NCBI GenBank assembly: GCA_017481235.1
Contig: JAFUPL010000046.1
Location: forward strand, 1 to 55,421
DNA length: 55,421 bases
Origin: Clostridia bacterium
GTDB taxonomy: Bacteria > Bacillota > Clostridia > Christensenellales > UBA1242
Reading direction: 5' to 3'
In this document: positions 730 through 54,637 of the stretch, one piece after another
How positions within the stretch are numbered: position 1 is the stretch's first letter
How the letters are laid out: each line of letters opens with the position of its first letter
The notes under the pieces: model-generated
Seen by the model: only the letters and a program-made list of their open reading frames with translations
The model's database searches: none
What the model was told of the DNA's origin: nothing
Position numbers and translations under genes: made by a program

Positions 730-736
730 TGTCGAA
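730..736 (+). promoter_or_regulatory. perfect Spo0A-box heptamer TGTCGAA, 32 nt upstream of the SPOR-like gene start
   Basis: The exact heptamer sits in AAATTTATGTCGAAAAATAATT. Its flanks resemble the boxes at 32880, 39694 and 52738. Confidence 0.4.
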
Positions 737-19600: not shown

Positions 19601-22600
19601 CCAATTTTGCCTTCACCGTTAACAATAGCATATATATTGTTGTAAGGAATATTAAAGATTAATTTTCCATCTTTAGCATACATCTTAGTAATTGAGTCAA
19701 GGTTATTTGAACTAATATTTGCGTCTATAACCCCATAGAAATATGCTGTGTATATTGCTCCAAAACACTCAAGTCGACCTATTATTCCGCTAACATTATT
19801 ACTTCCAGTTAAACTTACACTTGCAACGCTATTAACAACGCTAAGTGTTGGATCTGTATCTTTTTGTTTTTCAAAATAAGAGCTTCTAGATGATGTTCCC
19901 AAACCAATCAAACCGCCAACATTATTGATAGCTTCAATATCATACACTTGCACACTAGGTTGATAATTCCATGCAAAACTATTAGCATAACAATAATTTA
20001 ATGTGGTATCATTAGCATTACCAATTAAACCGCCTACATTGTCGTTACCTTTAATGCTTTGTTGAACTTGGTATATTTCATAATATACTTTTTCGTAAGT
20101 TCCATCTATATCATATCCTATAGCACCACCCACATTGTTATTGCCAATTACTTGTGCGTTGGAATAACTGTTAGTAACTTGATATTTAATACTTTTTTCA
20201 ATTGTAATTGTGTCTACCGCATTATGACTTGAATTTGGGTCACTTCTTGATGTTGTTATTACGTTAGTATTTTCAACACCTATATTTTTACCAATCAAAC
20301 CACCAATATTGTTAACAGTTAAAACGTTGGCACTATTATGACCCAAAATTTTTCCTGTAGAATAAACGTTAATCATTGTTCCATTCAATTGTTTAGTAGT
20401 TTCGTCAATACTTCCAACATTTTTGCCTATCACACCACCAATTGCACTATTATCTAAACTGTTATCTAAGTTATTAACATTTTCCACTTGAAGCACAATA
20501 TCCGCGGTTGCACCTTGCTTGTCGTAATATACATCATATTCAACTTTGTTCACATCGTCATCACCGCTAACAATTGAACTTGGAATATTTGCGCCTATCA
20601 ATTTTCCTTGATTTTCACCAATAACACCACCAAGTACCACTGTTGACGCGTTTGAGTTAGTTACATAAATATCTCCTTGAACACCTACTTGCTTAGTAAG
20701 TTTGGACATATCAATAGTTCCGTCACCTATGTTTAGCGCCACCATTGAACCTATGATATAGTTGTTGACATGGTTATTTGCATTAACTTTTCCACTAATT
20801 GTAATTGTTATATCTTTAATTAGCGCAGAGTTTTTACCAACAAGACCAATTAATATATCTATTAAGTCATCGTCAATATCTTTATTTGTCTTTGTTGAAA
20901 CATAATTAATATCTATATGGAAATCAATATTTTCTAGCACCGCTAATCCATCATCATTTGCATTTAAAACTTTAAACAATGCCGGATTACTTTCATTTAG
21001 CATAATTCCATAAATTGAAAATCTATTGTCAGAATTTTCACGTTCTTTGAAAGATGAAATTGTTCCGCTAAATTTATCAAAACTAATTGCTTTACCGTTT
21101 AAATCAATATCGTTTACTAAAGCATAGTGCTTTGTGATTTCACCATCAGTGTCAACGTCATTAGATATTTTTTCAAAATCACTGCCACTAGCAATTAAAT
21201 ACGGACTTGCGATACTTCCGTCACTTACAATTATATCAACCATAATATATGAAGAATTATTTTGAATGTACAACATAGTATTAAAGTAATTAGTTATTGT
21301 TAACAAACTTGCATTAAGTTGGTCTTTTGCCACAATTATTAATTTTGCCTTACCTGCACTGGTTGCTTTTAGCAATCCATTGTCATCAATAGTTGCAATG
21401 CTATTAATTTGATATCCCGATGTGCTACACACTATATATTCAACACCACTGAACGATACTTTACCTTTGGAAGATGTTGTGGTGGCATCAATTGTTATTT
21501 GTTCGCCTACTTTTAAATTAATATATCCGTTACCAGAACTAAAAGTATTAATATGAGTATTTAAAACTACTCGTTCACTTAAAATAGGTTCACTAACCTC
21601 GTAATTGCAATATATTGGATATTGAACTCCAAATTGGTTAATAGTGGCAATTATTCTTCCAGCAAGTATTCCATTTAATGTTTTTCTATTGCCAAAAGTA
21701 AATTCCGCACTAGCATTATTAGATGAAACTGTATAATCACAAATCCCATCACCAATTCCTGTTCCTGAAGCAATCCATTTAATATCTACATAATCTAATA
21801 TCGTTTCGCTATTATTGTTTAATTGTATATTTAATGTTTGTTGACCATATTCTTCTTTCAAATTTGAATTAGGAATACTATGATAATTGTACTTATACAA
21901 CATTGTACTATCAAAAGTTGCTGAAGTTAGAGGTTCGTACACGTATATATAAATAGTTTTTGGAATTTCTACTGATTCACCTTTGTTTAGTTTGTAATAT
22001 GAATAAGTATTTGCTTTGATTGTGTATGTTATGGCGACATAATTTTTAGTGTTAGTTTCAACATCAAACGAACCAATACTACTCGTTCGTATAATGTCAT
22101 TGCCATCAGCATCTTTCGATGGTAAATAATTTGCGTAACTTTTGTTGCTAGTTTTGGTAGGGTTATTTACCATAACTGCTGTAACCTCTTGCCCACTAGT
22201 ATTGACAAAATCAGAATTTGAAATATCTATATTTACTTTGTACTGATTTGATGTTGAAAGTATATATGTATTGTTTATATCCAAATCATCAATATCAACC
22301 TTTGTGTAATACAACTTGTTTGGATTAAATTCGTCACTAGATTTTACTTTAATATATTGACCACCAATACATTCGTAATAAGTAGTAGTACCCCAATCGT
22401 TTGGTTGTGTATTAAGTGGTTGATATTCGTATAGCAATCGCTCACCACTAAAGTCAGGGGCCGAAATTGTTACACTAACATCATTACCTTGCAACTGTTT
22501 ATATACTTTTACACCTATAGTGCTGATTGTTCTTGGTTTTCCATCTTCAGCACCTTGTGAAATGTCAATAAAATAGTCACCACATTGTATGTCACCTGTT

Positions 22601-30155: not shown

Positions 30156-32771
30156 TTAGTCAACTTTGTACCAATACACATCTGCGGTTAGCAATGCCGT
30201 TGCATTGGCACTACTTATGTCAGTTGTAAGTCCTTCAACTTCCGCACCATTGGTGTATCCATTCCAATCAGTTTCACTAGCAACCGTAAACCATGTGCTA
30301 GTATCTCCAAATTTAGCATTAACAAGTCCACTACCGCTAAATACATTTGTACCCATTTGAGTTACGCTTGCTGGGATAGTTACACTGGTTAAACTATAAC
30401 AATTATAAAAAGCACCATTTCTTATTGTTGTTAAACCGTTTGGCAAAGTTATACTTGCCAAACTTTTGCAATAATTAAATACATATGTTCTAATTATTTT
30501 TAATGTTGTTGGTAATTTTATATTTGATAAATTCGTACAACTACCAAACATATAATCATTTAAATATTCTAAACTTGTACCACTTAAATCAATACTTACA
30601 AGACCACATCCATTAAATACGCTGCCACCAGTATGTGTTAATTGTGAACATCTACTCATATCAACATTTATTAGATTAGTACAAGTATGGAATGCCGACC
30701 CAGCAATATAAGTCAAACTACTAGGCAATATAACACTAGTAAGTTGTGTACAACTATGGAATGCACCTGTACTTATATTTGTTAAACTTGTACAAGCACT
30801 TAAATCAACACTTGTTAATGACGCAAAGTCCTTAAATGCATTTTCGCCAATATTTTGCAATCCAAGTGGGAACTTAATACTTTCCAATGTTGTAGGGAAA
30901 ATTCCCGAAGGAATAGTAGTAATACTTGTATCGGTTAAATCAATTTCCTTTAAACTACTATAACTTGTAAACGCACCATCACTAATAGTAGTTAAAGTTT
31001 GAGGCAACTTAATACTTTGCAAACCAGTAGCACCCAAATCACCAATAGTAGCAATCTTAGTCCCACTCAAATCAATGTTGGTTAAACCAGGTATATAAAA
31101 AGCGTTAAATTCAATTGTAGTTAAATTTGTATATTTACTTAAATCTAAATTAAATAAGTTTGTACCAGAAAATGCAAAAGTTCCTATAGTTATTATATTT
31201 TTAGGTAAAATAATATTTGATAATTTAGCACAACCTTCAAAAGTATAAGTTTTTATTTGGGTTAAATTATCACAACTATTTAAGTTTATGCTGGTTAATT
31301 CCATACAACCTGAAAAGGCGTATTCCCCAATATTATTCACAGTAGATGGAATTATCACACTAATCAAACTAGAACAACCTGAAAAGGCATTATTTCCTAT
31401 CTCAGTTAAGTTTGCACACTTACTTAAATCAATATTTTTTAAGAACATACAATTAGAAAAAGCATAATCACCTATAGTTGTTACATTGTTCAAATTTGAT
31501 ATATTGGTTAAACTTGAACAACCCATAAATGCATTGTCGTCTATAGTTGTAACACTATATGGAAGAAGTACAGTAGTTAAACTTGTACAACCCATAAATA
31601 TTGAATCGCCAACAGTTTGCAACTTTAAACAATTACTTAAATCAATTTCTAACAATCCTTCACATTCATGGAACGCATATGTTGAAATTGTAGTTAAATT
31701 TTTACAATTACTTAAATCCAAACTAGTCAAATTATAATTTCTCATAAACGCATTAGCATTTATAGTTGTTAAATCTACACAACTTGAAACATCAACATTT
31801 GTAAGGGTATTGCCAAAAAATGCACTTTCACCTATTGTTGTAATAGTTGAAGGCAAATTCACACTAGTAAGACCCCCACTTATAAAAGCTTGATTTCCAA
31901 TACCAGTAACTGGCGCTTCGCCATTTGTGCCATCATCATATATTGTTGGTATTACTAAATCGGCAATGCCAGGATCATCTGTTACACTATAACTTCCATT
32001 GCTATAGGTCATACAACTGGTTGAATTTAGTGGGAAGTTATGGAAACGGGCAAATAGTGGTTCGCCTTGGGTTTCGCGTGGAAAGGTAGCAAGTTTAGTA
32101 AAGTTTTCGTCCAAGAACCATGCGTCAAAGTTGTAGCCTGTAGGCGCGGTTGGTGTTGCTGGTTCTGGCAAATCTTGACCTTTAACAATAGTTTCGGTTG
32201 TGGTTACGCCATTGACGGTGTAACTAATTGTGCCCGCATTACCAAAGTTCCAAGAAATAGTTGTAGTAAAGTTAAGTGGAAGAGTTGCATCACTTGGAGA
32301 TACAAGCACGTAAATATAAATATCCGCGTCCTTAGTGTCGATAGTTTGAGCCTCAAACTTAGTTTGCGAAGTTGTTGTGCTATCAAAAGTTAGCGGAGTG
32401 CTTGAATACACATAACTAATATCAACACCTTCAATTTCTTGCATTGATTGCAAGGTTACCGCCATAGTTTGTTCTACGTTGCTAGGTCTACCAAATATAT
32501 ATTCATACGCCTTAACTGTAGCGGTATTCTCCGTAGCCATAGAACTTGGCATATAGTTAAAATCAATTGTTGTTTGATTTGTTCCAACCAATTCGATTTG
32601 ACCCGCTTGATAGGTGTAAGTGGTAGGTTTTTGCACATTTCCCTTATCCAATGCTGGAGTTGTAGGAGTTGAATTATCTGTTTTTTGAATGCAAATAATA
32701 CCTGTAACAAGCGCAACAAGCATTGCTACAAATACACTTACACTTAATATGATTTTCTTTTTTATACCCAT
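30156..32771 (-). CDS. BspA-type leucine-rich-repeat surface protein, paralog 1 (871 aa)
   Basis: N-terminal signal-anchor helix and a beta-rich domain. PTAPTGYNFDAWFLDENFTKLATFP is a Listeria-Bacteroides/InlB B-repeat-like segment. Then many repeats of the type IG..AF..C..LTSI.LP.S(L/V)T.I. Confidence 0.8.
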   Translation of the reverse strand: MGIKKKIILSVSVFVAMLVALVTGIICIQKTDNSTPTTPALDKGNVQKPTTYTYQAGQIELVGTNQTTIDFNYMPSSMATENTATVKAYEYIFGRPSNVEQTMAVTLQSMQEIEGVDISYVYSSTPLTFDSTTTSQTKFEAQTIDTKDADIYIYVLVSPSDATLPLNFTTTISWNFGNAGTISYTVNGVTTTETIVKGQDLPEPATPTAPTGYNFDAWFLDENFTKLATFPRETQGEPLFARFHNFPLNSTSCMTYSNGSYSVTDDPGIADLVIPTIYDDGTNGEAPVTGIGNQAFISGGLTSVNLPSTITTIGESAFFGNTLTNVDVSSCVDLTTINANAFMRNYNLTSLDLSNCKNLTTISTYAFHECEGLLEIDLSNCLKLQTVGDSIFMGCTSLTTVLLPYSVTTIDDNAFMGCSSLTNISNLNNVTTIGDYAFSNCMFLKNIDLSKCANLTEIGNNAFSGCSSLISVIIPSTVNNIGEYAFSGCMELTSINLNSCDNLTQIKTYTFEGCAKLSNIILPKNIITIGTFAFSGTNLFNLDLSKYTNLTTIEFNAFYIPGLTNIDLSGTKIATIGDLGATGLQSIKLPQTLTTISDGAFTSYSSLKEIDLTDTSITTIPSGIFPTTLESIKFPLGLQNIGENAFKDFASLTSVDLSACTSLTNISTGAFHSCTQLTSVILPSSLTYIAGSAFHTCTNLINVDMSRCSQLTHTGGSVFNGCGLVSIDLSGTSLEYLNDYMFGSCTNLSNIKLPTTLKIIRTYVFNYCKSLASITLPNGLTTIRNGAFYNCYSLTSVTIPASVTQMGTNVFSGSGLVNAKFGDTSTWFTVASETDWNGYTNGAEVEGLTTDISSANATALLTADVYWYKVD

Positions 32772-32824
32772 ATCTTATCCCCCGCAATTATTACAAAAAA
32801 TAACAATTGTCCCTTAATACATTT

Positions 32825-32853
32825 ATTTTAACAATTTCCTTTATAAAAGTCAA
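32825..32853 (-). promoter_or_regulatory. conserved extended -10 promoter of LRR gene 1
   Basis: Minus strand reads TTGACT (32853-32848), 17-nt spacer ending in TGT, then TAAAAT (32830-32825). The same layout occurs at 39629-39657 and 52673-52701. Confidence 0.6.
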
Positions 32854-32879
32854 AACATTTGTAATAGTTTTTGCTATTT

Positions 32880-32886
32880 TGTCGAA
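32880..32886 (+). promoter_or_regulatory. perfect Spo0A-box heptamer TGTCGAA, 26 nt upstream of the LRR-1 -35 element
   Basis: The exact heptamer sits in ATTTTGTCGAAAAATATTT. Confidence 0.45.
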
Positions 32887-32974
32887 AAATATTTAACCAA
32901 ATTCACACATACAAAACTTATTATGTTTGCAAGGTCAACATGTTGATATATTTAAAACATTATCCTATTGAATG

Positions 32975-33042
32975 GGCGAAGCGCGCAACCACGTTGCACA
33001 AAATGCGAATGCATTTCAAGAAACTATTGTTTCTGCTTCGCC
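32975..33042. other. 68-nt four-way-junction (mini-cloverleaf) element, copy A
   Basis: Closing stem GGCGAAGC/GCTTCGCC (32975-32982 with 33035-33042). Hairpins GCAAC-cac-GTTGC (32985-32997), AAATGC-gaat-GCATTT (33001-33016) and AGAAAC-tatt-GTTTCT (33019-33034). Confidence 0.7.
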
Positions 33043-33255
33043 ACAAATCATACAATTGAACATGGTATATGCCTAAAATAAAAAATTAAGCGAATTAATC
33101 ACTTAATTTATCATTTATTTAATTTTGTAATATTAAAACTCATAGCATGCCAACGATTTGATTAATTATCTATAATATTAATTGCTATATTTAACCTTTA
33201 AGCCAGATACATTCCACTCCCAACTAATGTCGCTCGGTCGGTATGACATAAGACT

Positions 33256-33855
33256 TTACTTAGTTTCGTCCAAATATGTTGCCATCATATCCGCGGTATG
33301 AAAAATCATTGCATTAGGAAACTTGTAATACGCGTCCGCCAAACCATATGAACCGCCTCGCACTCTATCGTCAAAACCGCCTCCATGCCAATTGATTGCC
33401 ATCGCTTCTTCGCGAGTAAGTTTGATAAAACTTCCCACAATATACACCGACTTTTCACCATGACCATAAGGCAATCTATCTTCAATGCTATAATATGGAA
33501 CTTGTATCCATTGCCCATCAACCTTTACATTGCGGTAATCAACCTTGTAAAAATCTACCTTACACACATCATGCAAAAGTGCAATAATTGCCACACTTTC
33601 CATTGAAATTTTACTAGTAAAATCATCACCGTATTCCATAGTCAAAAGTCGAACATAGCGGTCAAAAACTTTTAAACTATGCTCACACAATCCACCCTCA
33701 AACGCCGAATGGAATTTGCTTGATGCTGGCGCGGTAAAAAAGTCGCTATTAATCAACCAATCCAACAAATTGCCCGCACCCTCACGCGTGATATATTTAT
33801 TAAAAATTTCAATAAATTTTTCTTGATTTTCTTCCAATTCTTTTTCGTCTAACAT
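33256..33855 (-). CDS. HD-domain phosphohydrolase
   Basis: 199 aa. H...HD pattern (FHSAFEGGLCEHS, ALLHDVCK, GHGEKS, NWHGG, HTADMMA). Confidence 0.7.
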   Translation of the reverse strand: MLDEKELEENQEKFIEIFNKYITREGAGNLLDWLINSDFFTAPASSKFHSAFEGGLCEHSLKVFDRYVRLLTMEYGDDFTSKISMESVAIIALLHDVCKVDFYKVDYRNVKVDGQWIQVPYYSIEDRLPYGHGEKSVYIVGSFIKLTREEAMAINWHGGGFDDRVRGGSYGLADAYYKFPNAMIFHTADMMATYLDETK

Positions 33856-35600: not shown

Positions 35601-38600
35601 TCATGGTAATGTTGTATAAACATTATCTGCATAATATGATACATAAGTACGTCCACTATCAAGGATTCCAGCAACAAAACTGAAATTTGATAAATTATAT
35701 ACTGTTTTTAAATTTGTACATCCATAGAAAGCATAATCCGATATTTTTGTTACATTGGATGGGATTGTTATACTTGTTAAACTACTACATCCCCAAAAAG
35801 CATTCTTCCCTATCGTTGTTAAATTATTACATTTGCTTAAATCTACACTTGTTAAATTGATACATTGGTAGAATGTATAATTTCCTATCATTGTTGTTCT
35901 ACTATCTAGGGTGATACTTGTTTTAGTTTTATCACTTAAACGTAGCGCTATATAATCTGTTTCACTATTTTTATAATAATCTACTCCATCTATGGTTACT
36001 AACTTACTTTCATCTCTTGGTCCATTTACTACTATAGCGGCATAATATGCTACATATCCATTTAAGGAACTTCCCGCTTTTATATTCAAACTGGATAAAT
36101 TATATATCTCTACCAAATTATTACATTTGTCAAACGCCTGACTATCTATTGTTGTTAAACTTGAAGGTAGGGTTATGCTGTTTAAATTATAACATTGATA
36201 GAAAGAACATTTATCTATTGTAACTAAATTTGCACAATTACTTAAGTCAATGTTTATTAATTTAGTATAATTATAAAATGCGTATTTATTAATTGATATT
36301 GTTCTATCATTTAATGTAACATGTGTTTTAGTTATATCTACTAATCCGATTGCTATATAACTACTATCACTCTCCTTATAATACCTTACTCCATCTATTG
36401 TTGTAAATTTACTTTCTTCTAAACTAGTATACACTTGTAAGGCATAACAACCAACATATCCATTATCTTCACTTCCTTGAGTTATAGTTAAATTTGATAA
36501 GTTAAATACTTCTGCTAATGCATAACAATATTGGAAAGCATTATTCCCTATACTTATTATACTGCTTGGAATTGTTATACTTGTCAAACTGTAACATTGA
36601 TTAAATGTATTACTTTCTATAGTTGTTATTCCTTCTGGAATTGTTATACGTTTTAATGTTTGACAATTTTTAAACGCACCCGCTCCGATACTTGTTACAC
36701 TTGATGGTATATTTACACTGATTAAATTATGACAACTAGCGAAAGTAGAGGCTCCTATTGTTTTTAAACTTGTACAATTTGTTAAATTTACATATGCTAA
36801 GTTGTCACAATATGAAAAACACTCTCTCTCAATTGTTGTTAAATTTATACAATTACTCAAATCCACATTAATCAAACTTGTACAACCACTAAAAGTATTT
36901 TCATCTATAATATTCAAATTTTTACAACCACTCATATTTACACTTATTAATGCGCTGCAATCGCTGAATAAATATCTTCCTGTTATAGTCAAATTTGCAC
37001 AACTGCTAATGTCTATACTTTTTAAAATTTGATTTTTGTGAAAAGCATAATTTCTTATTAAAGTTGTTCTACTATCTAGGGTGATTCTTGTTTTTGTATT
37101 ATCACTTAAACGTAGGAATCTATAATCTGTATCACTATATTTATAATAATCTACTCCTTCTATGGTTACTAACTTACTTTCATCTCTTTCATGTTTTGCT
37201 ACCACTCCAGCATAATATGCCAAATATGAATTCCTTGTATCTTGTTCTCCTTGCTCAAAAGATATACTAGATAAATTATATACCTCTGCCAAATTATAAC
37301 AACAATGAAAAGCACCCATACCTACGCTAGTTACATTTTCTGGAATTGTTATATTTGTTATATTGCCACATTGATAGAAAGCATTACTTCCTATTGTTGT
37401 TAAACTATTTGGCAAAGTTATAGTTGATAAAGCACTACAATATTGGAAAGTATATGTTCCTGTGTTTGTAATAGTATTTGGAAGTTGGGCATTGGTTAGA
37501 CCTGAGCAATAACTAAATAAGTAACCAGGTAGTGTGGTTATGCTGGTACATTTGCTTAAGTCAGCCTTAATTAAACTTGCATTGTTAGCAAAGGCATAAG
37601 GACCAAGGGCTGTTATTGAACTTGGTAATACAACATTGGTGATTGTGGTGTATCTAAATGCTTGGTTACCAATTGTGGTTAAACTGGTGCATTTGCTCAA
37701 ATCTCCAACTGACGATAGTTTTGCGTAAGAGAAAGCATTGATACCAATACTAATTAGGTCAGTACATTTACTTAAATCACCTACTGAGGTTAGTTGTGTG
37801 CAATTATAGAATGCATATTTACCTATTGAAGTAACTTTGGTTGGGATAATAGTTTTAATTAAACTTGAACATTTATTAAATGCATAGTCGCCTAATGTGG
37901 TAAGTTCGTTAGGCAATACTAGATAGGTAAGACTGGTACAACTATCAAAAGCATTTGCGCCAATAGTGGTTACATTTTTAGGAATATTAATGCTATACAA
38001 ACTGCTACAATTACGGAATGCACTTGCTCCTATACTTGTTAAACTAGCACAACCATTTAAATTAATATCTTCAAGCGCCACGCAATTGTAAAACGCATTT
38101 GCCCCAATACTATCAATCCCGTAAGGCATTGTAATACCCGTCAAACTGCTACAACCATAAAACGCACTATCTCCAATACTGGTTATACCACTATGTAAAC
38201 CAACCTCTTGCAAATTTTCACAACCATAAAACGCACGACCTCCAATACTGGTCAAGTTTTTACAATTACTTAAATCAATACTAATTAAATTATTACAATT
38301 AGAGAAAGCATCATTTCCAATAGTTTCCACACTACTAGGAATGGTTATACTTGTAAAAATATCACAAGCAGCGAAAGCAGAATCTCCTATCGTTGTTAGA
38401 TTAGTACAACTAGTTAGGTCTATACTTGTTAAACCACACCAATCGAATGCATAATCTCCTATTGTTGTTAGATTAGTACAACTAGTTAGGTCTACACTTG
38501 TTAAACTAGAATTATCGAAAGCATAATCTCCTATTGTTGTTATAGTGCATGGCATTGACACACTAGTTATGTCACACCCCGTCGTCATATCATCACTAAA

Positions 38601-39542
38601 TGCATAAATTCCTATACTTGTTACCCTTGCTTCACCATTAATTCCATCGTTATATATGGTTGGGATTACAATATTAGTGATACCAGTATCATAAACATAA
38701 TCATATCCACTACCACACCAATTTTCATCAAAATAATCATCATTACTAAATACATATTCGCCATCAACATAATGGATATATTTAGTGGTATTTGGGGTTA
38801 TATTATGAAAACGAGCATAAAGGTTGCGGTTGCTTTGTAGTGGGAATGTGGCAAGTTGAGTAAAGTTTTCGTCCAAGAACCATGCGTCAAAGTAGTATCC
38901 GTCTGGCGCGGTTGGAGTGGCGGGTTGTTGCATTTCTAGACCATCAACAAATGTTTGAGTGGTTGTTGTGTTGTTGACATTGTTTTTAATCTCAATAGTT
39001 TTTGCTACGCCATAATTCCACACAACGCTTGTACTAAATGTAACTGGAACGGTTGCGTCGGTTGGGGTAACCAATATGTAAATATATTTATTGCTACCCT
39101 TGGTGTTGATTGTTTGGATAGTATAATCGGTTTGACCTGTAATGGTGGTAGATGTATCCAACGGAGTATCACTATAGGTGTAACTAACATTTACGCCCGT
39201 AGTGTCAATACTTTTTAACTTAACCGCCATAGCAACGTCCATAGTATTACCAAATATATATTGATATGCGATAGTGGTGGCGGTGGTATCCTCGGTAGCA
39301 TTTGCACCTGGAACATAATTATAATTAATTACATCATCACCATTTTTAACCACTACTTCACCTGGAAGATATGTGTATGTGGTAGGTTTTTCATTATCAA
39401 TATCAACCACTTGACCCTTATTGGTTGGAATTTGTGGTGGAATTGAATGGTCCTTATTAATATTGATTAATCCAATAGCAAAAGCAACAAGCATTGCAAA
39501 TGCTACGCTTACACCTAATATTATTTTTTTTCTTATACTCAT
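35601..39542 (-). CDS. BspA-type leucine-rich-repeat surface protein, paralog 2 (about 1313 aa)
   Basis: Same architecture as paralog 1. I placed the start at MSIRKKIILGVSV (ATG 39542) because AAGGGGA lies 6 nt upstream, as in the other paralogs; the track ORF merely extends in-frame to 39638. It contains three full copies of an approximately 85-aa module (..EVYNLS...ESK(L/F).TI(D/E)GV.YYK...TK..ITLD.RT) and a truncated fourth copy at the C-terminus. Confidence 0.8.
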   Translation of the reverse strand: MSIRKKIILGVSVAFAMLVAFAIGLININKDHSIPPQIPTNKGQVVDIDNEKPTTYTYLPGEVVVKNGDDVINYNYVPGANATEDTTATTIAYQYIFGNTMDVAMAVKLKSIDTTGVNVSYTYSDTPLDTSTTITGQTDYTIQTINTKGSNKYIYILVTPTDATVPVTFSTSVVWNYGVAKTIEIKNNVNNTTTTQTFVDGLEMQQPATPTAPDGYYFDAWFLDENFTQLATFPLQSNRNLYARFHNITPNTTKYIHYVDGEYVFSNDDYFDENWCGSGYDYVYDTGITNIVIPTIYNDGINGEARVTSIGIYAFSDDMTTGCDITSVSMPCTITTIGDYAFDNSSLTSVDLTSCTNLTTIGDYAFDWCGLTSIDLTSCTNLTTIGDSAFAACDIFTSITIPSSVETIGNDAFSNCNNLISIDLSNCKNLTSIGGRAFYGCENLQEVGLHSGITSIGDSAFYGCSSLTGITMPYGIDSIGANAFYNCVALEDINLNGCASLTSIGASAFRNCSSLYSINIPKNVTTIGANAFDSCTSLTYLVLPNELTTLGDYAFNKCSSLIKTIIPTKVTSIGKYAFYNCTQLTSVGDLSKCTDLISIGINAFSYAKLSSVGDLSKCTSLTTIGNQAFRYTTITNVVLPSSITALGPYAFANNASLIKADLSKCTSITTLPGYLFSYCSGLTNAQLPNTITNTGTYTFQYCSALSTITLPNSLTTIGSNAFYQCGNITNITIPENVTSVGMGAFHCCYNLAEVYNLSSISFEQGEQDTRNSYLAYYAGVVAKHERDESKLVTIEGVDYYKYSDTDYRFLRLSDNTKTRITLDSRTTLIRNYAFHKNQILKSIDISSCANLTITGRYLFSDCSALISVNMSGCKNLNIIDENTFSGCTSLINVDLSNCINLTTIERECFSYCDNLAYVNLTNCTSLKTIGASTFASCHNLISVNIPSSVTSIGAGAFKNCQTLKRITIPEGITTIESNTFNQCYSLTSITIPSSIISIGNNAFQYCYALAEVFNLSNLTITQGSEDNGYVGCYALQVYTSLEESKFTTIDGVRYYKESDSSYIAIGLVDITKTHVTLNDRTISINKYAFYNYTKLINIDLSNCANLVTIDKCSFYQCYNLNSITLPSSLTTIDSQAFDKCNNLVEIYNLSSLNIKAGSSLNGYVAYYAAIVVNGPRDESKLVTIDGVDYYKNSETDYIALRLSDKTKTSITLDSRTTMIGNYTFYQCINLTSVDLSKCNNLTTIGKNAFWGCSSLTSITIPSNVTKISDYAFYGCTNLKTVYNLSNFSFVAGILDSGRTYVSYYADNVYTTLP

Positions 39543-39628: not shown

Positions 39629-39657
39629 ATTTTAACAATTTGAATATGATTTGTCAA
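39629..39657 (-). promoter_or_regulatory. conserved extended -10 promoter of LRR gene 2
   Basis: Minus strand reads TTGACA, 17-nt spacer ending in TGT, then TAAAAT. Confidence 0.6.
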
Positions 39658-39693
39658 AACTTTTTTAACACTTTGCAATATTTTTCCCAAATT

Positions 39694-39751
39694 TGTCGAA
39701 ATTTATTTGTTTTGACACTAATATATGCGACAAAATCTACCCATTACGACA
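39694..39751. promoter_or_regulatory. cluster of three Spo0A-type boxes in the LRR-2/addB divergent region
   Basis: TGTCGAA is on the plus strand at 39694-39700. TGTCGCA (39732-39726) and TGTCGTA (39751-39745) are on the minus strand, each preceded by TTT. Confidence 0.4.
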
Positions 39752-39769: not shown

Positions 39770-39798
39770 TTGCGCTAAAAGATATTGTGTGATATAAT
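39770..39798 (+). promoter_or_regulatory. candidate extended -10 promoter for addB
   Basis: TTGCGC, 17-nt spacer ending in TGA, then TATAAT (39793-39798). Only 6 nt separate the -10 box from the ATG. Confidence 0.4.
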
Positions 39799-39804
39799 GA
39801 AGGC

Positions 39805-42800
39805 ATGAAACTAAATATTTTAAAGTCTTTAAATCTAAAACACGCAATCGACAACACTATCACCACTATCAAGCAACTTGGTGATAATGATATTTGCGTG
39901 ATTGTACCAGACAAATTAAGTGCAACAATGGAAAAATTAATTTTTGAAAAGTTGGATATTGAATGTAGTTTTAATATCAATGTTTCCACACTTAATAGAT
40001 TAAGTAAAAATATTTTGGCGGAAACACACGCTAAATATCGCACAATTTCCAAGATTGGTGGCATTATTTTGCTTAAAAAAGTGCTTAATGAAAATAAGGA
40101 ACTTATTACAAGTTTTAAAAACGACAAACATTCGTATCAATATAGCAACGAAATTTACAAAACTTTATCACAATTAAAGGCATGCCAACTATCAAGTGAC
40201 GAATTATTAAAGTATGAGTGCGAACTTAAACCTTTGCAACAAAAAATAAATGACCTAGGCAATATCATGCAAATATACAACGAGGCAAAAACGGAAATGT
40301 TGGACAACTCGGATACTTTGACACTTACTTGCATGATGTTGGACCGTAGCGAAACGGTTAAAAACACCTACTACATTTTTGTAGGTTTTGACGATTTTAC
40401 TTCACAAGGTTATCTTTTGATTGAGCGCTTGCTTAAATGTAGTAAAGGCGTGTATGTAAACACCTACACCTCAAACAATTTTAACAAAAATATCTATTAT
40501 CAAGATGTATTTTATAGATTGCTTGCAATGTGTCAAATTTTAGGCGCTAAGGACAATATTATTGAATATCCTTATGTTGATGATACTATTCACACCTATT
40601 TAACTCGCAACCTATTTGCGTTTAACAAACTTAACTTTATCACTCAACCTAACACCATTAGGTTATATCAAGCACAAAATATTGTGGACGAACTTGAGTT
40701 TATAGCACGCGACATTCGTCAAAAAGTTTTAAGTGGCGCAAGATATCGCGAATTTGGACTTGCCGTATATAATTTAAATGCATATACCGAAGTTATTAAG
40801 CAAGTGTTTAACAAATATGACCTTTGCATCTACTTGGACGTACAAAAAGGCTTTTCATCTACTTGCGTGTATAGATTTTTTACAAACTTGTGGCAAATAT
40901 ATGCTAAAAACTACGACACTCTTAATTTGATTGAACTTATCAATAGTCCTTTTATAGTATTGCCCGAAATTCACAAAGCAACAATAATTAAAACTATCAA
41001 GCAATTTAACTATCGTGGCAATTTGGAAAAACTAGATTGCAAAGATGAAGAAATAAACCAGTCAGTTGACAGTTTGCACAAATTTTTAACCACATACAAG
41101 TTGGATACAAATTCAAATATTGACACTATTATTGAGTGGCACAATACCATAATTGAACAATTAAATATGGTGGAAATTGTAGCAAATTTAACGGGAAAAC
41201 TTGATGACGCTTACGATCAAAAAATTATTGCACAAGCAATAAAGTCTTCTAATCAATTGCTTAATGAAATCAAGGAATTTTACCCTAACGCTATGTTAAG
41301 TGAAATTTTGGATATTTACACTCAAGCGGGAGTGGAACTTGCCATATCTCCACTACCTTTAAGTGCAGATTGTATTCAAGTGATTGACGCAAATGAAATT
41401 TTGACCAATTTTGACAATCTTTACATTGTAAATTGTTCTTCCTCCACCGCTCCAAGCATTCTTCAAGATGTGGGAATATTACTTGACAAGGAACTTACTT
41501 ATGTTCAACTTTCACATAACATTGAACCAACCATTGCCCGTATGAACCGTTTGAACAAATTTAAGTTGTTTAATAGTGCATTAATGTTTAACAAAAATTT
41601 GTGCGTATCAATGAGTTTGTCCTCACCTAGCGAAACCAGCACGCTTGTAACCGAACTAAAATCACGAATATTTACGCAAAATGACAAACATGATGAGGCG
41701 AATATTGGATATATTTATCCTTATCAAATTAAAAGTGATAAAATATACACTCCGCTAAGTGTGTGGGATTTGGTTGAGTATGCGTATACTAACAAAATTG
41801 ACTTAAGTCAAAAGGTTAAAAATCTTATCGAGAGCACTAATATACAAACCAACCCTACCGACATTACTATAGATAAAAATTTGTGTAGCATTAATGAAAT
41901 TTCGGCAAGTGCTTTAGAAAACTATTTCCAATGCCCGTTGAAATATTTCTTTAGTTACATATTAAAATTAAAAGAACCCGTTTCTAGTGAAATTGAAATG
42001 CTGGATATTGGAAATATATTACACGAACTTGCTTACTTTTACTATTTATGCAAAGACCGTTTAACGCTTGATATAAATAAGTTTTGTAGCGAAACAATTA
42101 AAAAACTTATTGAAAAAGACGAAAAGTTAGTTCAACACATCAACAATCCAATATTGATTAATCTAATAGCGGAGGCCGAGCGTTTTATTTTGCATTTGCG
42201 CAACTTAGATAACAATAGTGAATTTGTTCCTACATATTTTGAAAAATCATTTGGTGCAAATAAATCACTAGACGCTTTACCTTTAACCGACAATATTAGT
42301 TTGAAAGGAAAAGTGGATAGAATTGATATTTATAATGAATATTTTAGAATTATCGACTATAAATCGGGCAATGCCGACGCATCTCTTGATGAGTTGTATT
42401 ATGGCAAAAAACTTCAACTATTTTTGTACGCTTTAGCAATACAAAATGCAACTGATAAAAAAATTAGTGGAACATTTTACTTGCCTATAAAAAATGTAGT
42501 AGAAAAAATGGATAGTGACGACAATATATACAAGTTGATCGGATTTTATACTGACGATAATGATTTAATCAACGCTTATGATATTAACCTTGAACCAAAC
42601 TCAAAAAGTGAATATGTAAATATAACCTTAAAAAAGGACGGAACTTTATCTAAACGAAGCGACAAAGTATTGTCACCAAGCGAAATGGAGCGCTTAATGG
42701 AATATTCCAAAAATGTATCCATTAAGGCATTGGAAGAAATGTGTTGTGGCAATTTTAAAGCATCTCCTTTAAAGTTTGACAAAACCACTTCCGCTTGCAC

Positions 42801-49745: not shown

Positions 49746-52628
49746 TTATTTTTTGTACCAATATTTACTATAATAACTAGACTTAAACATCAAATAATGA
49801 TTAGTTCCAGCAGTTATTGTAACAGGGTGACCTCCACTCATTGCTTCTTGTTGTGATTCAGAGCACTGATACCATGTTCCACTAGTTTCAAATTTTAATG
49901 AACTTAAACCGCTTTGATAAAATGAGTATTGCCCTATTTTTATTACATTACTTGGAATAACTATACTTGTTATAATTTTATCATAATAAAAAGCATAACT
50001 GTTTATCGATGTTGTTCTGCTATCTAGTGTAATACTTGTTTTAGTTCTATCTGCTAAGTATGCTGCTATATAACTATTATCACTTTCCTTATAATATCTT
50101 ACTCCATCTATTGTGGTAAATTTACATTCCTCTAAACTCGTATATATTTGTAAGGCGCTACTTACTGTTACGGTTAAACTTGATAAATTACATACTTCTA
50201 CCAATGAATGACAATTACTGAAATTACCACTTCCTATCTTGGTTACTTTAGATGGAATTGTTATACTACTTAACGCAGCACAAGATGAAAAAGCATTATT
50301 GCCTATAGATGTTAAACTTATACAATCATTTAAATTTATACTCCTCAACCGCCCGCAATCGGAAAAAACATAATTCCCTATACTTGTTATACTATGTGGC
50401 AAAATTACACTTTCTAAACTACTACATTTATAAAATTCATTATCTTCTAATGTTGTTAACTTAGTACAATGACTTAGGTCTATACTTGTTAATTCACTAC
50501 TCGTAAAAGTTTTATTTAACAAAGTTAAATTTATACAATTGCTTAAATCTACACTTTTTAATTTCACACTATCGTAAAAAACAGACATTCCCATTTGTGT
50601 AACACTTGCCGGAATAGTTATACTTGTTAATCCACTTTCATAAAAAGCATAATTACCTATAATCTCTATATCATTTGGTATTATTGTTGTATTACTACCT
50701 TGTATCAACGTATTTGTTGAACTTTCAATTATTGCATTACAATTGTTTCTGCTATCATACACATTATTGTTTTCATCTACTACTACATTTGTTAATGCAT
50801 AACAAGAAGAAAATGCATGGGATCCTATTGTTGTTACTCTTGCTGGAATTACAATGTTTGTAATCTTATCACAATCATTAAAAGCACTTTGTCCAATTGA
50901 AATTAAATTTGTACACTTACTTAAATCTATATTTGTTAACTTTTGACACTTAGAGAAAGCACTAGTTTCAATTGCAGTTAAATTCATGCAATTAGTTAAT
51001 TCTACACTTATTAAATAATCACAATCATAGAAAGCGCTATTTCCTATTGTAGTTAAATTTGTACATTTGCTTAAGTCGATACTTGTTAAACAATCAATAT
51101 CACGAAATGCATAATTTCTTATCAATGTTGTTCTACTATCTAAAGTAATACTTATTTTAGTTGCATCACTTAAACGTAGCGCTATATAATCTGTTTCACT
51201 ATTCTTATAATAATCTACTCCATCTATTGTTACTAACTTACTTTCATCTCTTGCTTCGTTTTTTACAATTGCCGCATAAAATGCCACATAACCATAACCC
51301 ATACTTCCAGTTGTTATGCTTAAATTTGATAAATTATACACCTCTGCTAAATTATAACAATTATTGAACGCCCAAGAATCAATGTGTGTCACACTTGCTG
51401 GAATTGTTATATTTGTTAAACCTCCACAATTAGAGAAAGCAGAGTTAATTGTTGTTAAATTTTGACAAATAGTTAAGTCTATATTAAGTAAAGCGTTACA
51501 GTTACTAAAAGCATATGTTTCTAAACTTTGAATACTAATTGGGAGTTTAACATTTGTTAAACCTTTACATTCATAAAATGAATATTTGGGTATAGTTATT
51601 AAACTTGTGCATTTGCTTAAGTCTACACTTTCCAGATTATCACCACATCTAAAAAATGCATAATCACCTATAGTGGTCAAACTTGAAGGAAGAGTTACAC
51701 TCGTTAAACCTGTTTGATTATAAAACACTCCGTTTGCTTGGGACGTTGCTGTGGCAATTTCGGTTACTGGTTTGCCATTATACTTTGATGGGATTACTAG
51801 ATTGCTTGGTAGAGTTGATGGATTTGATGCGGGTTTAGTTATATGATATGTATCACTTTCCTCATCTAGTGTTAACCAATCTGTTGGTAGGTTTGAAAAT
51901 TGGGCATACAGTTGTTGGTTTGGTTTTACTTCACCTTCGACCCTTTTAGTATATTCCTTATCCAAATACCAACCCTCAAACATTATATCTTGCATTTCAA
52001 TTTCTGGCACATCTAAAGTATTTTCATCTATACTTTGTCCATTTACTATTGTTTGGGTTGTTGTTGTATTATTGATATTGTTGCTAACAACTATTTCCTT
52101 AGGTTTACCTAAGTACCACACAACGCTTGATGTAAATGTTGTTGGGATTTCTTGATTTGTTGGGGTTACAAGTATGTAGATATATTTTTTAGCATTTTTT
52201 ATTTTAAGTTCTTGCAATGTAAATTTAGTTTCGCCTGTAATTTCACCAGTTGTATCAAGCGGGGTGTCGCTATATGCATAACTAACTGTTACATTTGTTG
52301 TATCAATTGATTTAAGGTTGACAACCGTTGTTTCGTCCATTACACCTTTAAATACATATTCATAAGCGGTTGTAGTTGGAGTATCACCACTATTAACACT
52401 TGGGAAATATTGATATTGTAAGTTGTCTCCACCTTTTTGAATTTTTACTTCACCTGGTTTATATGTAATGGTTGAGTTATTTTTATTTACATTTGTAACT
52501 TGTTGATTTGAAGATGAAGGCGTACTATTTCTATTATTGGAATTAAGTATTACAATCCCTACTAGCAAAGTCACCAACATGACAATACAAATACTTGTGC
52601 TTAACACAATCTTTTTTAATCTAGTCAT
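49746..52628 (-). CDS. BspA-type leucine-rich-repeat surface protein, paralog 3 (960 aa)
   Basis: Same N-terminal anchor, beta domain and B-repeat-like segment (MFEGWYLDKEYTKRV), then LRRs. Two copies of the approximately 85-aa module are shared with paralog 2. The C-terminal domain is shared with paralog 1 (..WY..SE.....YWYK). Confidence 0.8.
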   Translation of the reverse strand: MTRLKKIVLSTSICIVMLVTLLVGIVILNSNNRNSTPSSSNQQVTNVNKNNSTITYKPGEVKIQKGGDNLQYQYFPSVNSGDTPTTTAYEYVFKGVMDETTVVNLKSIDTTNVTVSYAYSDTPLDTTGEITGETKFTLQELKIKNAKKYIYILVTPTNQEIPTTFTSSVVWYLGKPKEIVVSNNINNTTTTQTIVNGQSIDENTLDVPEIEMQDIMFEGWYLDKEYTKRVEGEVKPNQQLYAQFSNLPTDWLTLDEESDTYHITKPASNPSTLPSNLVIPSKYNGKPVTEIATATSQANGVFYNQTGLTSVTLPSSLTTIGDYAFFRCGDNLESVDLSKCTSLITIPKYSFYECKGLTNVKLPISIQSLETYAFSNCNALLNIDLTICQNLTTINSAFSNCGGLTNITIPASVTHIDSWAFNNCYNLAEVYNLSNLSITTGSMGYGYVAFYAAIVKNEARDESKLVTIDGVDYYKNSETDYIALRLSDATKISITLDSRTTLIRNYAFRDIDCLTSIDLSKCTNLTTIGNSAFYDCDYLISVELTNCMNLTAIETSAFSKCQKLTNIDLSKCTNLISIGQSAFNDCDKITNIVIPARVTTIGSHAFSSCYALTNVVVDENNNVYDSRNNCNAIIESSTNTLIQGSNTTIIPNDIEIIGNYAFYESGLTSITIPASVTQMGMSVFYDSVKLKSVDLSNCINLTLLNKTFTSSELTSIDLSHCTKLTTLEDNEFYKCSSLESVILPHSITSIGNYVFSDCGRLRSINLNDCISLTSIGNNAFSSCAALSSITIPSKVTKIGSGNFSNCHSLVEVCNLSSLTVTVSSALQIYTSLEECKFTTIDGVRYYKESDNSYIAAYLADRTKTSITLDSRTTSINSYAFYYDKIITSIVIPSNVIKIGQYSFYQSGLSSLKFETSGTWYQCSESQQEAMSGGHPVTITAGTNHYLMFKSSYYSKYWYKK

Positions 52629-52672: not shown

Positions 52673-52701
52673 ATTTTAACAATTTACTTTTTATTTGTCA
52701 A
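52673..52701 (-). promoter_or_regulatory. conserved extended -10 promoter of LRR gene 3
   Basis: Minus strand reads TTGACA, 17-nt spacer ending in TGT, then TAAAAT. Confidence 0.6.
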
Positions 52702-52737
52702 AGAATTTACAATATGTTTATATATTTTTTGTAAATT

Positions 52738-52744
52738 TGTCGAA
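52738..52744 (+). promoter_or_regulatory. perfect Spo0A-box heptamer TGTCGAA, 36 nt upstream of the LRR-3 -35 element
   Basis: AAATTTGTCGAAATTTATTT is identical over 20 nt to the LRR-2 box region at 39690-39709. Confidence 0.45.
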
Positions 52745-52759
52745 ATTTATTTATAAAAC

Positions 52760-52837
52760 GGCGCGAATTGCACGCATTATGCGTGCGGATTGCAAAAGCA
52801 ATCCCCAAATTTTGCAATACAAAATTTAATTCGCGCC
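52760..52837. other. 78-nt perfect four-way-junction (mini-cloverleaf) element, copy B
   Basis: Closing stem GGCGCGAATT/AATTCGCGCC (10 bp). Hairpins GCACGCA-tta-TGCGTGC, GGATTGC-aaaa-GCAATCC and AAATTTTG-caata-CAAAATTT. All 32 pairs are Watson-Crick. Confidence 0.75.
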
Positions 52838-52872
52838 CCATATTTCACCCTCAAACTTAACTTTTCAACTAT

Positions 52873-52900
52873 AAAAAAAACTAAGCAAGTGCTTAGTTTT
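52873..52900 (-). terminator. intrinsic terminator of sigG (overlaps the stop codon)
   Basis: Minus strand reads AAAACTAAG-cacttg-CTTAGTTTT followed by TTTT. Confidence 0.75.
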
Positions 52901-53672
52901 ATGACATATATCGTTTAATTTGCTCTAATGCATTTTTTTCTAACCTACTTACTTGTGCTTGCGATATACCTATTTCATTGCTAACTTCCATTTGAGTTTT
53001 GCCCGCAAAATACCTTAGGTCAAGTATTTGTTTTTCCCTTGCATCAAGGTTTCTAACCGCGTCTTTCAGGTCCACATTTTGCAACCACTTGTCACTATTT
53101 TGACTTTCGTCCGCAAGGTGTTCTAGTAGCAACACTTGGTCGTCATCATCATTGTACATTGCCTCGTCAAGCGACAATGGCGCACTTATTGCATCAATTG
53201 CGTCTACCACCTCAAACAATGTAAGGTTTAAATCACTTGCAATTTCCTCCAAACTAACCTCGTCCGAACGGTCTTTGCTAAGTCGTTCCTTGCTTTTTAG
53301 CACCAAATATGCTGTATCACGCAAACTTCTGCTTACTCGCATACTACTACTATCCCTTAAAAATCGCTTAATTTCGCCCACTATCATAGGCACGGCATAG
53401 GTGCTAAATCTCACATTTAGCGTAAGGTCAAAGTTGTCAATTGCCTTCATAAGTCCCACACAACCCACTTGGAAAATATCGTCCATACTTTCCTTTGTAT
53501 CGCAAAACCGTTGTGCAACCGACAACACCAATCTCATATTGCAATAAATAAAATGCTCTTTTGCTTGCTCACAACCGTCTTTAATTTGATGTAAAATGCT
53601 AACTGTTTCGTCATTTGTAAGTCTAGGAATATTTGAAGTATTAATGTTACAAATATAAACTTTTCTTGACAT
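52899..53672 (-). CDS. sigG: sporulation sigma factor SigG
   Basis: NMRLVLSVAQRF, DDIFQVGCVGLMKAIDNFD, VRFSTYAVPMIVGEIKRFLRD and VSRSLRDTAY are SigG-like. I chose the ATG at 53672 (MSRKV) with AGGAG 6 nt upstream; the track start at 53678 is a TTG. Confidence 0.85.
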   Translation of the reverse strand: MSRKVYICNINTSNIPRLTNDETVSILHQIKDGCEQAKEHFIYCNMRLVLSVAQRFCDTKESMDDIFQVGCVGLMKAIDNFDLTLNVRFSTYAVPMIVGEIKRFLRDSSSMRVSRSLRDTAYLVLKSKERLSKDRSDEVSLEEIASDLNLTLFEVVDAIDAISAPLSLDEAMYNDDDDQVLLLEHLADESQNSDKWLQNVDLKDAVRNLDAREKQILDLRYFAGKTQMEVSNEIGISQAQVSRLEKNALEQIKRYMS

Positions 53673-53806
53673 AACCAACTCCTAAGCGTATTGTTTGCTT
53701 TGCAAAAATTTTTATACCCAAAAATTGTAAAACTCTAAATTTTGACAACATAAGTTATATTCAAACATTTAATTACTTTTTTTTATTTCTTTTACATGTT
53801 TAAATT

Positions 53807-53815
53807 TGATACAAT
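53807..53815 (+). promoter_or_regulatory. extended -10 element TGATACAAT, 6 nt upstream of the spoIIGA ATG
   Basis: TG-A-TACAAT at 53807-53815. There is no SD between it and the ATG at 53822. Confidence 0.35.
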
Positions 53816-53821
53816 CCAAAT

Positions 53822-54637
53822 ATGAATGTATATGTAGAACAAGTACTTTTAACTAATTTTGTAATTGACTTTTGCATACTTTTAATTATTTCCAAATGCG
53901 TATTGTCCAAACCAAATTACAAGCACATTATTTTATCATCATTGTTTGGAAGTTTTGCTACTTTAATCATGCCCTATTGCGCAAATATCATACTTACAAA
54001 TACTCTTAAAATATTAACCGCAATTATAATGCTTCAAATTTTACATATTAGCAAAAAACAACTACTCCTTTCATGTATGCTAATGCTGGTTGTAAGTTAC
54101 ATTATTGGCGGAGCAATACTTTCCAATTTTGGCACTCAAACCGCTAATGGTTATGGTTTAAACAAAATCAATTTGATATACGTGTTTGCAACCACACTAA
54201 TATTCACCTTTGTAACTTGTAAATTAATTGTTTGGATTAAAAGTAAAATTACATCAAATTCCAATATATATGATATTACCTTAATAAATGATGATAAAAA
54301 AATTACAACCAAAAGTTTTATTGACTCAGGCAATAGTTTACTTGACAACAATCAACCCGTTAGTTTAATTAACTTTGATACGTTTACTCGCCTTACTAAC
54401 ATAACTCTTAACCAATACTTAACCAAAAACTTTACTTCGCTAAATAACCCTCACTTTATCAATGCAAGCACAATTGCGGGCAAGCGTAAAATTTTGGTAT
54501 TCACAATCAATGAACTCCATTTAAACAAATGTTCAAATATTAAAATTTATAAAAATGTCAAACTTGGTGTAGCACTTAATTTTGACAATTCGAAAGAATA
54601 TAAAGCGATATTAAATTCAAGTTTTTGCTTTAATTAA
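53822..54637 (+). CDS. spoIIGA: sigma-E processing aspartic peptidase SpoIIGA
   Basis: 271 aa. N-terminal polytopic membrane domain starting MNVYVEQVLLTNFVIDF. The C-terminal domain carries the DSGN active-site motif (FIDSGNSLLD). It sits directly upstream of pro-sigE. Confidence 0.85.
   Translation: MNVYVEQVLLTNFVIDFCILLIISKCVLSKPNYKHIILSSLFGSFATLIMPYCANIILTNTLKILTAIIMLQILHISKKQLLLSCMLMLVVSYIIGGAILSNFGTQTANGYGLNKINLIYVFATTLIFTFVTCKLIVWIKSKITSNSNIYDITLINDDKKITTKSFIDSGNSLLDNNQPVSLINFDTFTRLTNITLNQYLTKNFTSLNNPHFINASTIAGKRKILVFTINELHLNKCSNIKIYKNVKLGVALNFDNSKEYKAILNSSFCFN

Follow-up and report, generated by a model that had tools for sequence, protein, structure and literature searches.

Three genes encoding LRR surface proteins, located on a 55,421-nt stretch of DNA (hereafter, the window) from an uncultured ruminant-gut member of the Christensenellales, are each preceded by a perfect copy of the heptamer TGTCGAA, raising the question of whether these copies are functional Spo0A-P sites that tie transcription of the LRR genes to stationary phase or to entry into sporulation. 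On the evidence of sequence composition, promoter architecture and comparison with homologs presented below, we regard this as fairly probable, though well short of assured.

Ruminant gut metagenome assemblies contain contigs identical to the window, as do gut, bovine, goat and sheep runs. The window has a GC content of 31%, and the nearest genome is a MAG of Candidatus Onthoplasma sp. (Christensenellales, Clostridia). Metagenome contigs differ from the window by a few SNPs, none of them in the boxes, a divergence too small to inform on strain variation. A preliminary description of this DNA had assigned it to a spore former, and the presence of sigG, spoIIGA and sigE in the window bears this out. 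Together with spoIIR, which relatives of the window encode alongside a PF07486 (Hydrolase_2) cell-wall hydrolase, these genes indicate that the organism has a sporulation programme and point to the presence of Spo0A; the spo0A gene itself is absent from the 55,421 nt of the window. The divergent arrangement of sigG and spoIIGA-sigE is identical in Onthoplasma sp. (L006), and differs from that of Bacillus, where sigG lies downstream of sigE.

The three LRR genes (Table 1) encode PF13306 BspA-type LRR proteins that have a signal anchor and an N-terminal domain in common and present 34-53% protein identity to each other. The start of LRR-2 was placed at the ATG at 39542, which has a GGGGA Shine-Dalgarno, and the TTG at 39638 given in the ORF list was rejected as an upstream in-frame artefact. 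In repeat type, N-terminal signal anchor and Flg_new domain the window proteins match the BspA-type LRR proteins (PF13306) of gut anaerobes, from which they are set apart by an N-terminal domain restricted to a small clade: two protein searches returned about 10 proteins with this domain among 5.8 billion, and a scan of a genome collection with the N-terminal domain alignment identified a single locus, L004. A metagenome scan with a broader alignment yielded weak matches, confined to query residues ~127-276 at 27-47% identity, which were discarded as not orthologous. The window also contains a 3738-aa ORF (13672-24888, minus strand) that probably encodes a giant surface protein and has no perfect 0A box upstream.

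Table 1. Coordinates of LRR genes, promoters, 0A boxes and sporulation genes in the window.
Feature	Coordinates	Strand	Remarks
LRR-1 gene	30156..32771	minus	871 aa, BspA-type LRR_5 repeats
LRR-1 core promoter	32825..32853	-	TTGACT 32848-32853, 17-nt spacer with TGT, TAAAAT 32825-32830
LRR-1 perfect 0A-box core TGTCGAA	32880..32886	+	26 nt from -35
Identical run, box to 26-nt spacer to -35	32844..32894	-	51 nt, 100% against L004 in an alignment of 70% overall
LRR-2 gene	35601..39542	minus	1313 aa, ATG at 39542 after GGGGA Shine-Dalgarno
LRR-2 core promoter	39629..39657	-	TTGACA 39652-39657, 17-nt spacer with TGT, TAAAAT 39629-39634
LRR-2 perfect 0A-box core	39694..39700	+	36 nt from -35; in divergent addB/LRR-2 intergenic region
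TGTCAAA near-box by LRR-2	39711-39717		on the other strand from the perfect box
LRR-3 gene	49746..52628	minus	960 aa, BspA-type LRR_5 repeats, N-terminal signal anchor
LRR-3 extended -10 module AAATTGTTAAAAT	52673..52685	-	TGT + TAAAAT (-10 at 52673-52678)
LRR-3 -35 TTGACA	52696..52701	-	with flank TTTGACA, TGTCAAA on the other strand
LRR-3 perfect 0A-box core TGTCGAA	52738..52744	+	TTCGACA in gene sense, 36 nt upstream of -35
20-mer AAATTTGTCGAAATTTATTT	39688-39707 and 52732-52751	+	identical in LRR-2 and LRR-3; longest of three common blocks
Perfect box by SPOR-domain gene	730..736	+	TTCGACA in gene sense, ~33 nt before ATG
Rho-like gene	9402-10709		435-aa protein with Rho RNA-binding domain
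Three direct heptads TATCAAA-aaa-TGTCAAA-att-TGTCGAA	10751..10777	-	10-nt period, before Rho-like gene
sigG	52899-53678	minus	
spoIIGA one-mismatch reverse box TTTGACA	53741..53747	+	62 nt upstream of extended -10 TGATACAAT (53807-53815)
spoIIGA	53822-54637		divergent from sigG
sigE start	from 54809		divergent from sigG

Read in gene sense, all three LRR genes present a common layout in which TTCGACA is followed, after 26, 36 and 36 nt in LRR-1, LRR-2 and LRR-3, respectively, by TTGAC(A/T), a 17-nt spacer ending in TGT and TAAAAT, with a GGGGA Shine-Dalgarno positioned 6 nt before the ATG. The 13-mer AAATTGTTAAAAT occurs as an exact match at the three LRR promoters only in the whole window. 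These promoters have the elements of a sigma-A extended -10 promoter (a TTGACA-like -35, a spacer of 17 ± 1 nt, TGn and a TATAAT-like -10): the calls of a promoter consensus scan cover LRR-1 and LRR-3, with 10 and 11 matches out of 12, respectively, and a TG before the -10 in both, and the LRR-2 promoter was read by eye. The coordinates, spacings and layout given for the three promoters in the preliminary description all proved correct on re-reading, and the LRR-2 and LRR-3 boxes do sit, as it had claimed, in an identical 20-mer. Its further claim that the boxes stand at helically phased distances is sustained insofar as the distances to the -35 are indeed 26 and 36 nt, but the alignments reduce this difference to a single 10-nt indel, so that the phasing constitutes weak evidence. 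The three boxes occupy homologous alignment columns and therefore have one origin.

The 0A box has been defined as a 7-bp core, TGTCGAA, with an A or T on either side and contact bases at G2, C4 and G5 (PMC3485338), in agreement with its earlier designation here as an established Spo0A-binding sequence. All three LRR boxes read TTTCGACAAA, with no mismatches to TTTGTCGAAA, and the core retains G2, C4 and G5 at 32880, 39694 and 52738; the A/T flanks, present at all three, are weakly informative at 31% GC. Relative to the ATG, the boxes occupy positions -109 to -158. They are reversed in orientation and stand about 62-68 nt upstream of the inferred transcription start in LRR-1 and about 72-78 nt in LRR-2 and LRR-3, and the distance from box to -10 is 49 nt in LRR-1 and 59 nt in LRR-2 and LRR-3. 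Each LRR promoter has one perfect box, and inspection by eye revealed no further 0A box at a distance of 10 nt from it in LRR-1, LRR-2 or LRR-3. Many well-studied Spo0A targets have tandem boxes. In LRR-2 and LRR-3 the -35 overlaps a one-mismatch 0A box, TGTCAAA, located 42 nt start-to-start from the perfect box, and the LRR-1 -35 (TTGACT) corresponds to a two-mismatch 0A box.

Over the whole window TGTCGAA is found in six copies against 4.18 expected, which is not significant. Five of the six, however, fall within intergenic DNA, which amounts to about 6-7 kb and for which the expectation is 0.44; a count of five was reached in none of 2000 dinucleotide shuffles, and 14 of 2000 reached three, the count that remains when the paralogs are scored as a single event. 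The resulting density is ~40-fold higher in intergenic (0.85 per kb) than in coding DNA (0.02 per kb), the four 10-mers matching TTTGTCGAAA in the window are all intergenic, and each of the five intergenic boxes adjoins a promoter-like element, with a -35/-10-like pair next to it, indicating a promoter-proximal location above chance. The preliminary estimate of five perfect intergenic copies where fewer than one should occur by chance is thus upheld. As a reference, the genome of C. difficile 630 contains 102 perfect cores (PMC3485338).

Perfect boxes were also identified by two genes outside the LRR family. The three direct heptads in front of the Rho-like gene end 5 nt upstream of TTTACT-17-TGTATAAT and make up a candidate site for high-affinity Spo0A binding, with a CtsR-like site as a possible alternative. 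Their head-to-tail TGTCAAA-att-TGTCGAA pair resembles the tandem boxes with 10-bp period of B. subtilis abrB and of the Spo0A-DNA crystal complex. Those of abrB are repressing and located downstream of the start; the heptads of the Rho-like gene, unlike these, end upstream of the -35, and the LRR promoters are without a tandem partner. In the case of the SPOR-domain gene (3-698, minus strand), the box is located directly downstream of a -10-like element, TGTTAAAAA, at the inferred start.

Within the sporulation locus, the spoIIGA promoter, which combines the extended -10 TGATACAAT with a poor -35, presents a near-box in the same orientation as the LRR boxes and at a similar distance from the -10 (62 nt, versus 59 nt in LRR-2 and LRR-3). 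Onthoplasma sp. has TTCGACC at the homologous position, so that the near-boxes of both are one mismatch away from TTCGACA, at different positions. In Bacillus, spoIIGA is a Spo0A target, and it is weakly bound by C. difficile Spo0A via non-consensus boxes (PMC3485338). At spoIIGA (53807-53824) the extended -10 stands just 6-7 nt before the ATG, without a Shine-Dalgarno, as it does at the Rho-like gene (10709-10724) and addB (39790-39807), which suggests that leaderless mRNAs occur in this organism; the LRR genes, unlike these three, have 44-86-nt leaders with GGGGA.

The comparison with homologs was based on nine family promoters, comprising those of window LRR-1, LRR-2 and LRR-3 and of L004, L005, L006, L020, L021 and L022; L007, L008 and L023, which come without upstream DNA, were left out, as was P0002. 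The syntenic LRR-1 ortholog of Candidatus Onthoplasma sp. (L004, 62% protein identity) has kept the box, and nowhere else in the LRR-1/L004 locus is conservation as high as in the identical run that links the box with the -35. Conservation of the entire 26 nt between box and -35 suggests constraint on something larger than a 7-bp site. Within the window, the LRR-2 and LRR-3 promoters have three blocks in common, of 20, 10 and 16 nt, corresponding to the box, -35 and -10, those besides the box block being TTTGACAAAT and AAATTGTTAAAATTAA. The separation of these blocks by diverged DNA constitutes a footprint pattern, and not that of a uniform recent conversion.

In the syntenic LRR-3 ortholog (L006), located between sigG and an M14 peptidase gene, the core promoter is kept and the homologous box has decayed to TTATATT. 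This promoter is of the LRR-1 type, with 26-nt spacing, whereas that of window LRR-3 is of the LRR-2 type; promoter types do not follow synteny, indicating that promoter exchange between paralogs has occurred. The homologous box has similarly decayed in L021, to TTTGATA, and this promoter contains a perfect forward TGTCGAA within its spacer (TTGACT-TTTGTATGTCGAATTTGG-TAAAAT), while in L022 the perfect box, TTGTCGAAAA, is likewise forward and precedes TTTACA-17-TGTTAAAAT by 5 nt, in the same layout as the Rho-like gene. The non-homologous positions of the L021 and L022 boxes denote independent gains. No box was detected in the L005 and L020 promoters, which, together with the loss in L006, implies that control is not universal in the LRR family.

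The perfect core is thus present in six of the nine family promoters, among which TGTCGAA is the most widely common G/C-containing 7-mer, and of the five promoters in which the ancestral box is missing, two have a new one, where 0.03 would be expected (reached in 2 of 5000 shuffles). The homolog loci (20.7 kb) contain three perfect boxes in all, every one of them in an LRR promoter, and no perfect box was found in a further 9.2 kb from relatives. Anecdotally, a contig from a metagenome run that matches the LRR-1 core promoter presents TTTTGTCGGAATTT (TGTCGGA) at the 36-nt-type position. Together, these patterns argue that the box upstream of the LRR genes is held under purifying selection and that relatives gained perfect boxes independently, and the comparative data, as read here, strengthen the link between 0A boxes and the LRR family. 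The suggestion of the preliminary description that Spo0A switches this family thereby receives partial support.

Two loci of relatives, L024 and L034, encode an HD-domain protein 82-87% identical to that of the window and have an acyl-carrier-protein gene after it, without an LRR gene, in contrast to window positions 32772-33855, which makes LRR-1 and its promoter cassette a recent lineage-specific insertion.

Several known systems resemble the LRR promoters in part. As in C. difficile spo0A, sigH, lplA and ssuA, a single perfect A/T-flanked TGTCGAA is found upstream of the gene in an AT-rich Firmicute, and in both cases about 60-160 nt separate the core from the start codon, although the LRR boxes, at -109 to -158 from the ATG, are more distant than those of C. 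difficile, at -67 to -82 (PMC3485338). The targets reported here are predicted ones, BspA-type LRR surface proteins of an uncultured Christensenellales, whereas Spo0A binding in C. difficile was assayed in gel shifts (PMC3485338). The Spo0A-P-activated spoIIG promoter of B. subtilis likewise couples a sigma-A promoter with upstream 0A boxes. In spoIIG, whose promoter is non-optimal, the spacer measures 22 bp and the 0A boxes overlap with the -35 region. Each LRR promoter, by contrast, has a single perfect box, distal to a core made up of a consensus -35, an extended -10 and a 17-nt spacer. A text search of the literature returned no paper linking LRR surface proteins to the 0A box.

Selection and enrichment show that a protein binds at these sites, without naming it, and the operator might belong to another DNA-binding protein of the lineage, such as a response regulator or a CtsR- or CodY-like protein, in which case its likeness to a 0A box would be coincidental. 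In keeping with this, the conserved block exceeds 7 bp, reaching 20 nt in LRR-2/LRR-3 and 51 nt in LRR-1, and the heptads of the Rho-like gene have the 10-nt periodicity of a CtsR operator, with three mismatches at 15 specified positions. When the alternatives were scored against AATTTTCWGAAAATT, RGTCAAANANRGTCAAA or TGWAANCGNTNWCA (CodY box, CtsR operator and cre), centred on the conserved block, the LRR sites fitted all of them poorly. The CtsR operator was rejected at 5-6 mismatches and cre at 3-5, as was the CodY box at 3-5, its best match spanning the box only at LRR-2 (4 mismatches); CodY matches with ≤4 mismatches are found in 9% of other intergenic windows. With this poor fit set against an exact match to TTTGTCGAAA, we infer that Spo0A is the protein binding the LRR boxes. 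The near-box at spoIIGA points in the same direction, as does the core specificity of Spo0A, which is common to Bacillus and Clostridioides, and gel shifts in C. difficile showed that binding by the Spo0A DNA-binding domain could be predicted from a perfect core (PMC3485338). Binding by a different regulator is, in our judgment, decidedly unlikely. We deem it very improbable that the box has no regulatory function at all, being a passenger in a copied or gene-converted promoter cassette, with the other copies due to chance. The single origin of the three window boxes, the promoter exchange between paralogs seen in the LRR-3 and L006 types and the loss of the box in L006 could all be accommodated by such a history, but the paralogs, at 34-53% identity, preserve the box block intact amid scrambled flanks, the non-homologous boxes of L021 and L022 arose independently (2 of 5000 shuffles), the intergenic enrichment exceeds that of every one of 2000 shuffles, and the other DNA from relatives contains no boxes.

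If the boxes are indeed occupied by Spo0A, Spo0A-P at the high-affinity upstream box would act on RNA polymerase at the LRR promoter, possibly together with the TGTCAAA-like sequence over the -35, which is weaker and stands three or four helical turns away, and transcription of the LRR surface proteins would thereby be coupled to the stationary phase or sporulation decision. Since the promoters are near-consensus sigma-A promoters, the sign of this effect is not readable from their sequence. Published modelling shows that the effect of a 0A box is not readable from its position alone, and steps that follow polymerase binding can be influenced from upstream boxes (PMC12090719). Given the upstream position of the box and the similar geometry at spoIIGA, stimulation of the three window LRR genes is modestly favored should Spo0A bind them. 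A less probable outcome is that Spo0A acts as a repressor, shutting off strongly expressed vegetative surface proteins at commitment to sporulation, and binding without much effect takes up the remainder. Repression would suit promoters that, with 10-11 of 12 consensus matches and a TG, need no activator, and the TGTCAAA over the LRR-2 and LRR-3 -35, 42 nt or four helical turns from the box, would allow cooperative occlusion; the SPOR-domain gene box at the inferred start fits as well. The L021 box, inside the spacer between -35 and -10, would repress, so that the sign may differ between family members. Against repression at the window genes, their three boxes, as well as the spoIIGA near-box, stand well clear of the polymerase footprint on its upstream side, and the LRR-1 -35, TTGACT, is just a two-mismatch box.

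Additional elements were observed around the LRR genes of the window and its relatives. The DNA that separates the sigG terminator from the LRR-3 0A box contains a ~78-nt cloverleaf-like element (52760-52838, minus-strand sense) with a closing stem and three hairpins and a minimum free energy of -43.7 kcal/mol (z = -6.4). L021 has a homologous copy ahead of its LRR promoter (L021 750-826), and an element of like architecture and different sequence (z = -4.0) is found upstream of LRR-1 (about 32975-33042). The cloverleaf-like element was not called as a tRNA by ARAGORN, and a search of the LRR upstream regions, this element included, against Rfam returned no known RNA family. Further upstream of the L021 LRR gene, positions about 430-700 resemble, by eye, a large Bacillus-type SRP RNA with the motif GTCAGGG..GGAA..CAGCAGC. 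Directly after the signal-anchor helix, three LRR homologs contain a G9 tract (L021 1166-1174, L023 76-84 and L008 221-229), which leaves L021 and L023 out of frame, restored by the addition or removal of one G, respectively, and L008 in frame; in L020 (about 1118-1135) the G tract is interrupted and the ORFs are split. This looks like slipped-strand phase variation. No run of at least seven G was found in the window LRR-1, LRR-2 and LRR-3 genes.

More speculatively, and on balance improbably, the LRR adhesin family might constitute a contingency locus, in which a repeatedly selected Spo0A switch is combined with slipped-strand on/off switching at the G9 tract in relatives. Under such a scheme, different members of the family would have acquired 0A boxes at three distinct promoter positions, proteins that bind the host or particles would be displayed in step with the choice between attachment and spore transmission, and the 51-nt invariant stretch and the cloverleaf-like element would be parts of a larger regulatory assembly.

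The control exerted by Spo0A is known to extend to many non-sporulation genes (PMC3485338), and the LRR genes would accordingly be new predicted members of a known regulon, unusually well backed by comparison with homologs, and not a new kind of system, leaving the view of how Spo0A works unchanged. If the prediction is true, the Spo0A regulon of this uncultured Christensenellales bacterium from the ruminant gut would be extended by a surface LRR family, 0A boxes would have been gained repeatedly within a single gene family, and in gut anaerobes the decision to sporulate and transmit would be linked to surface or adhesion properties.
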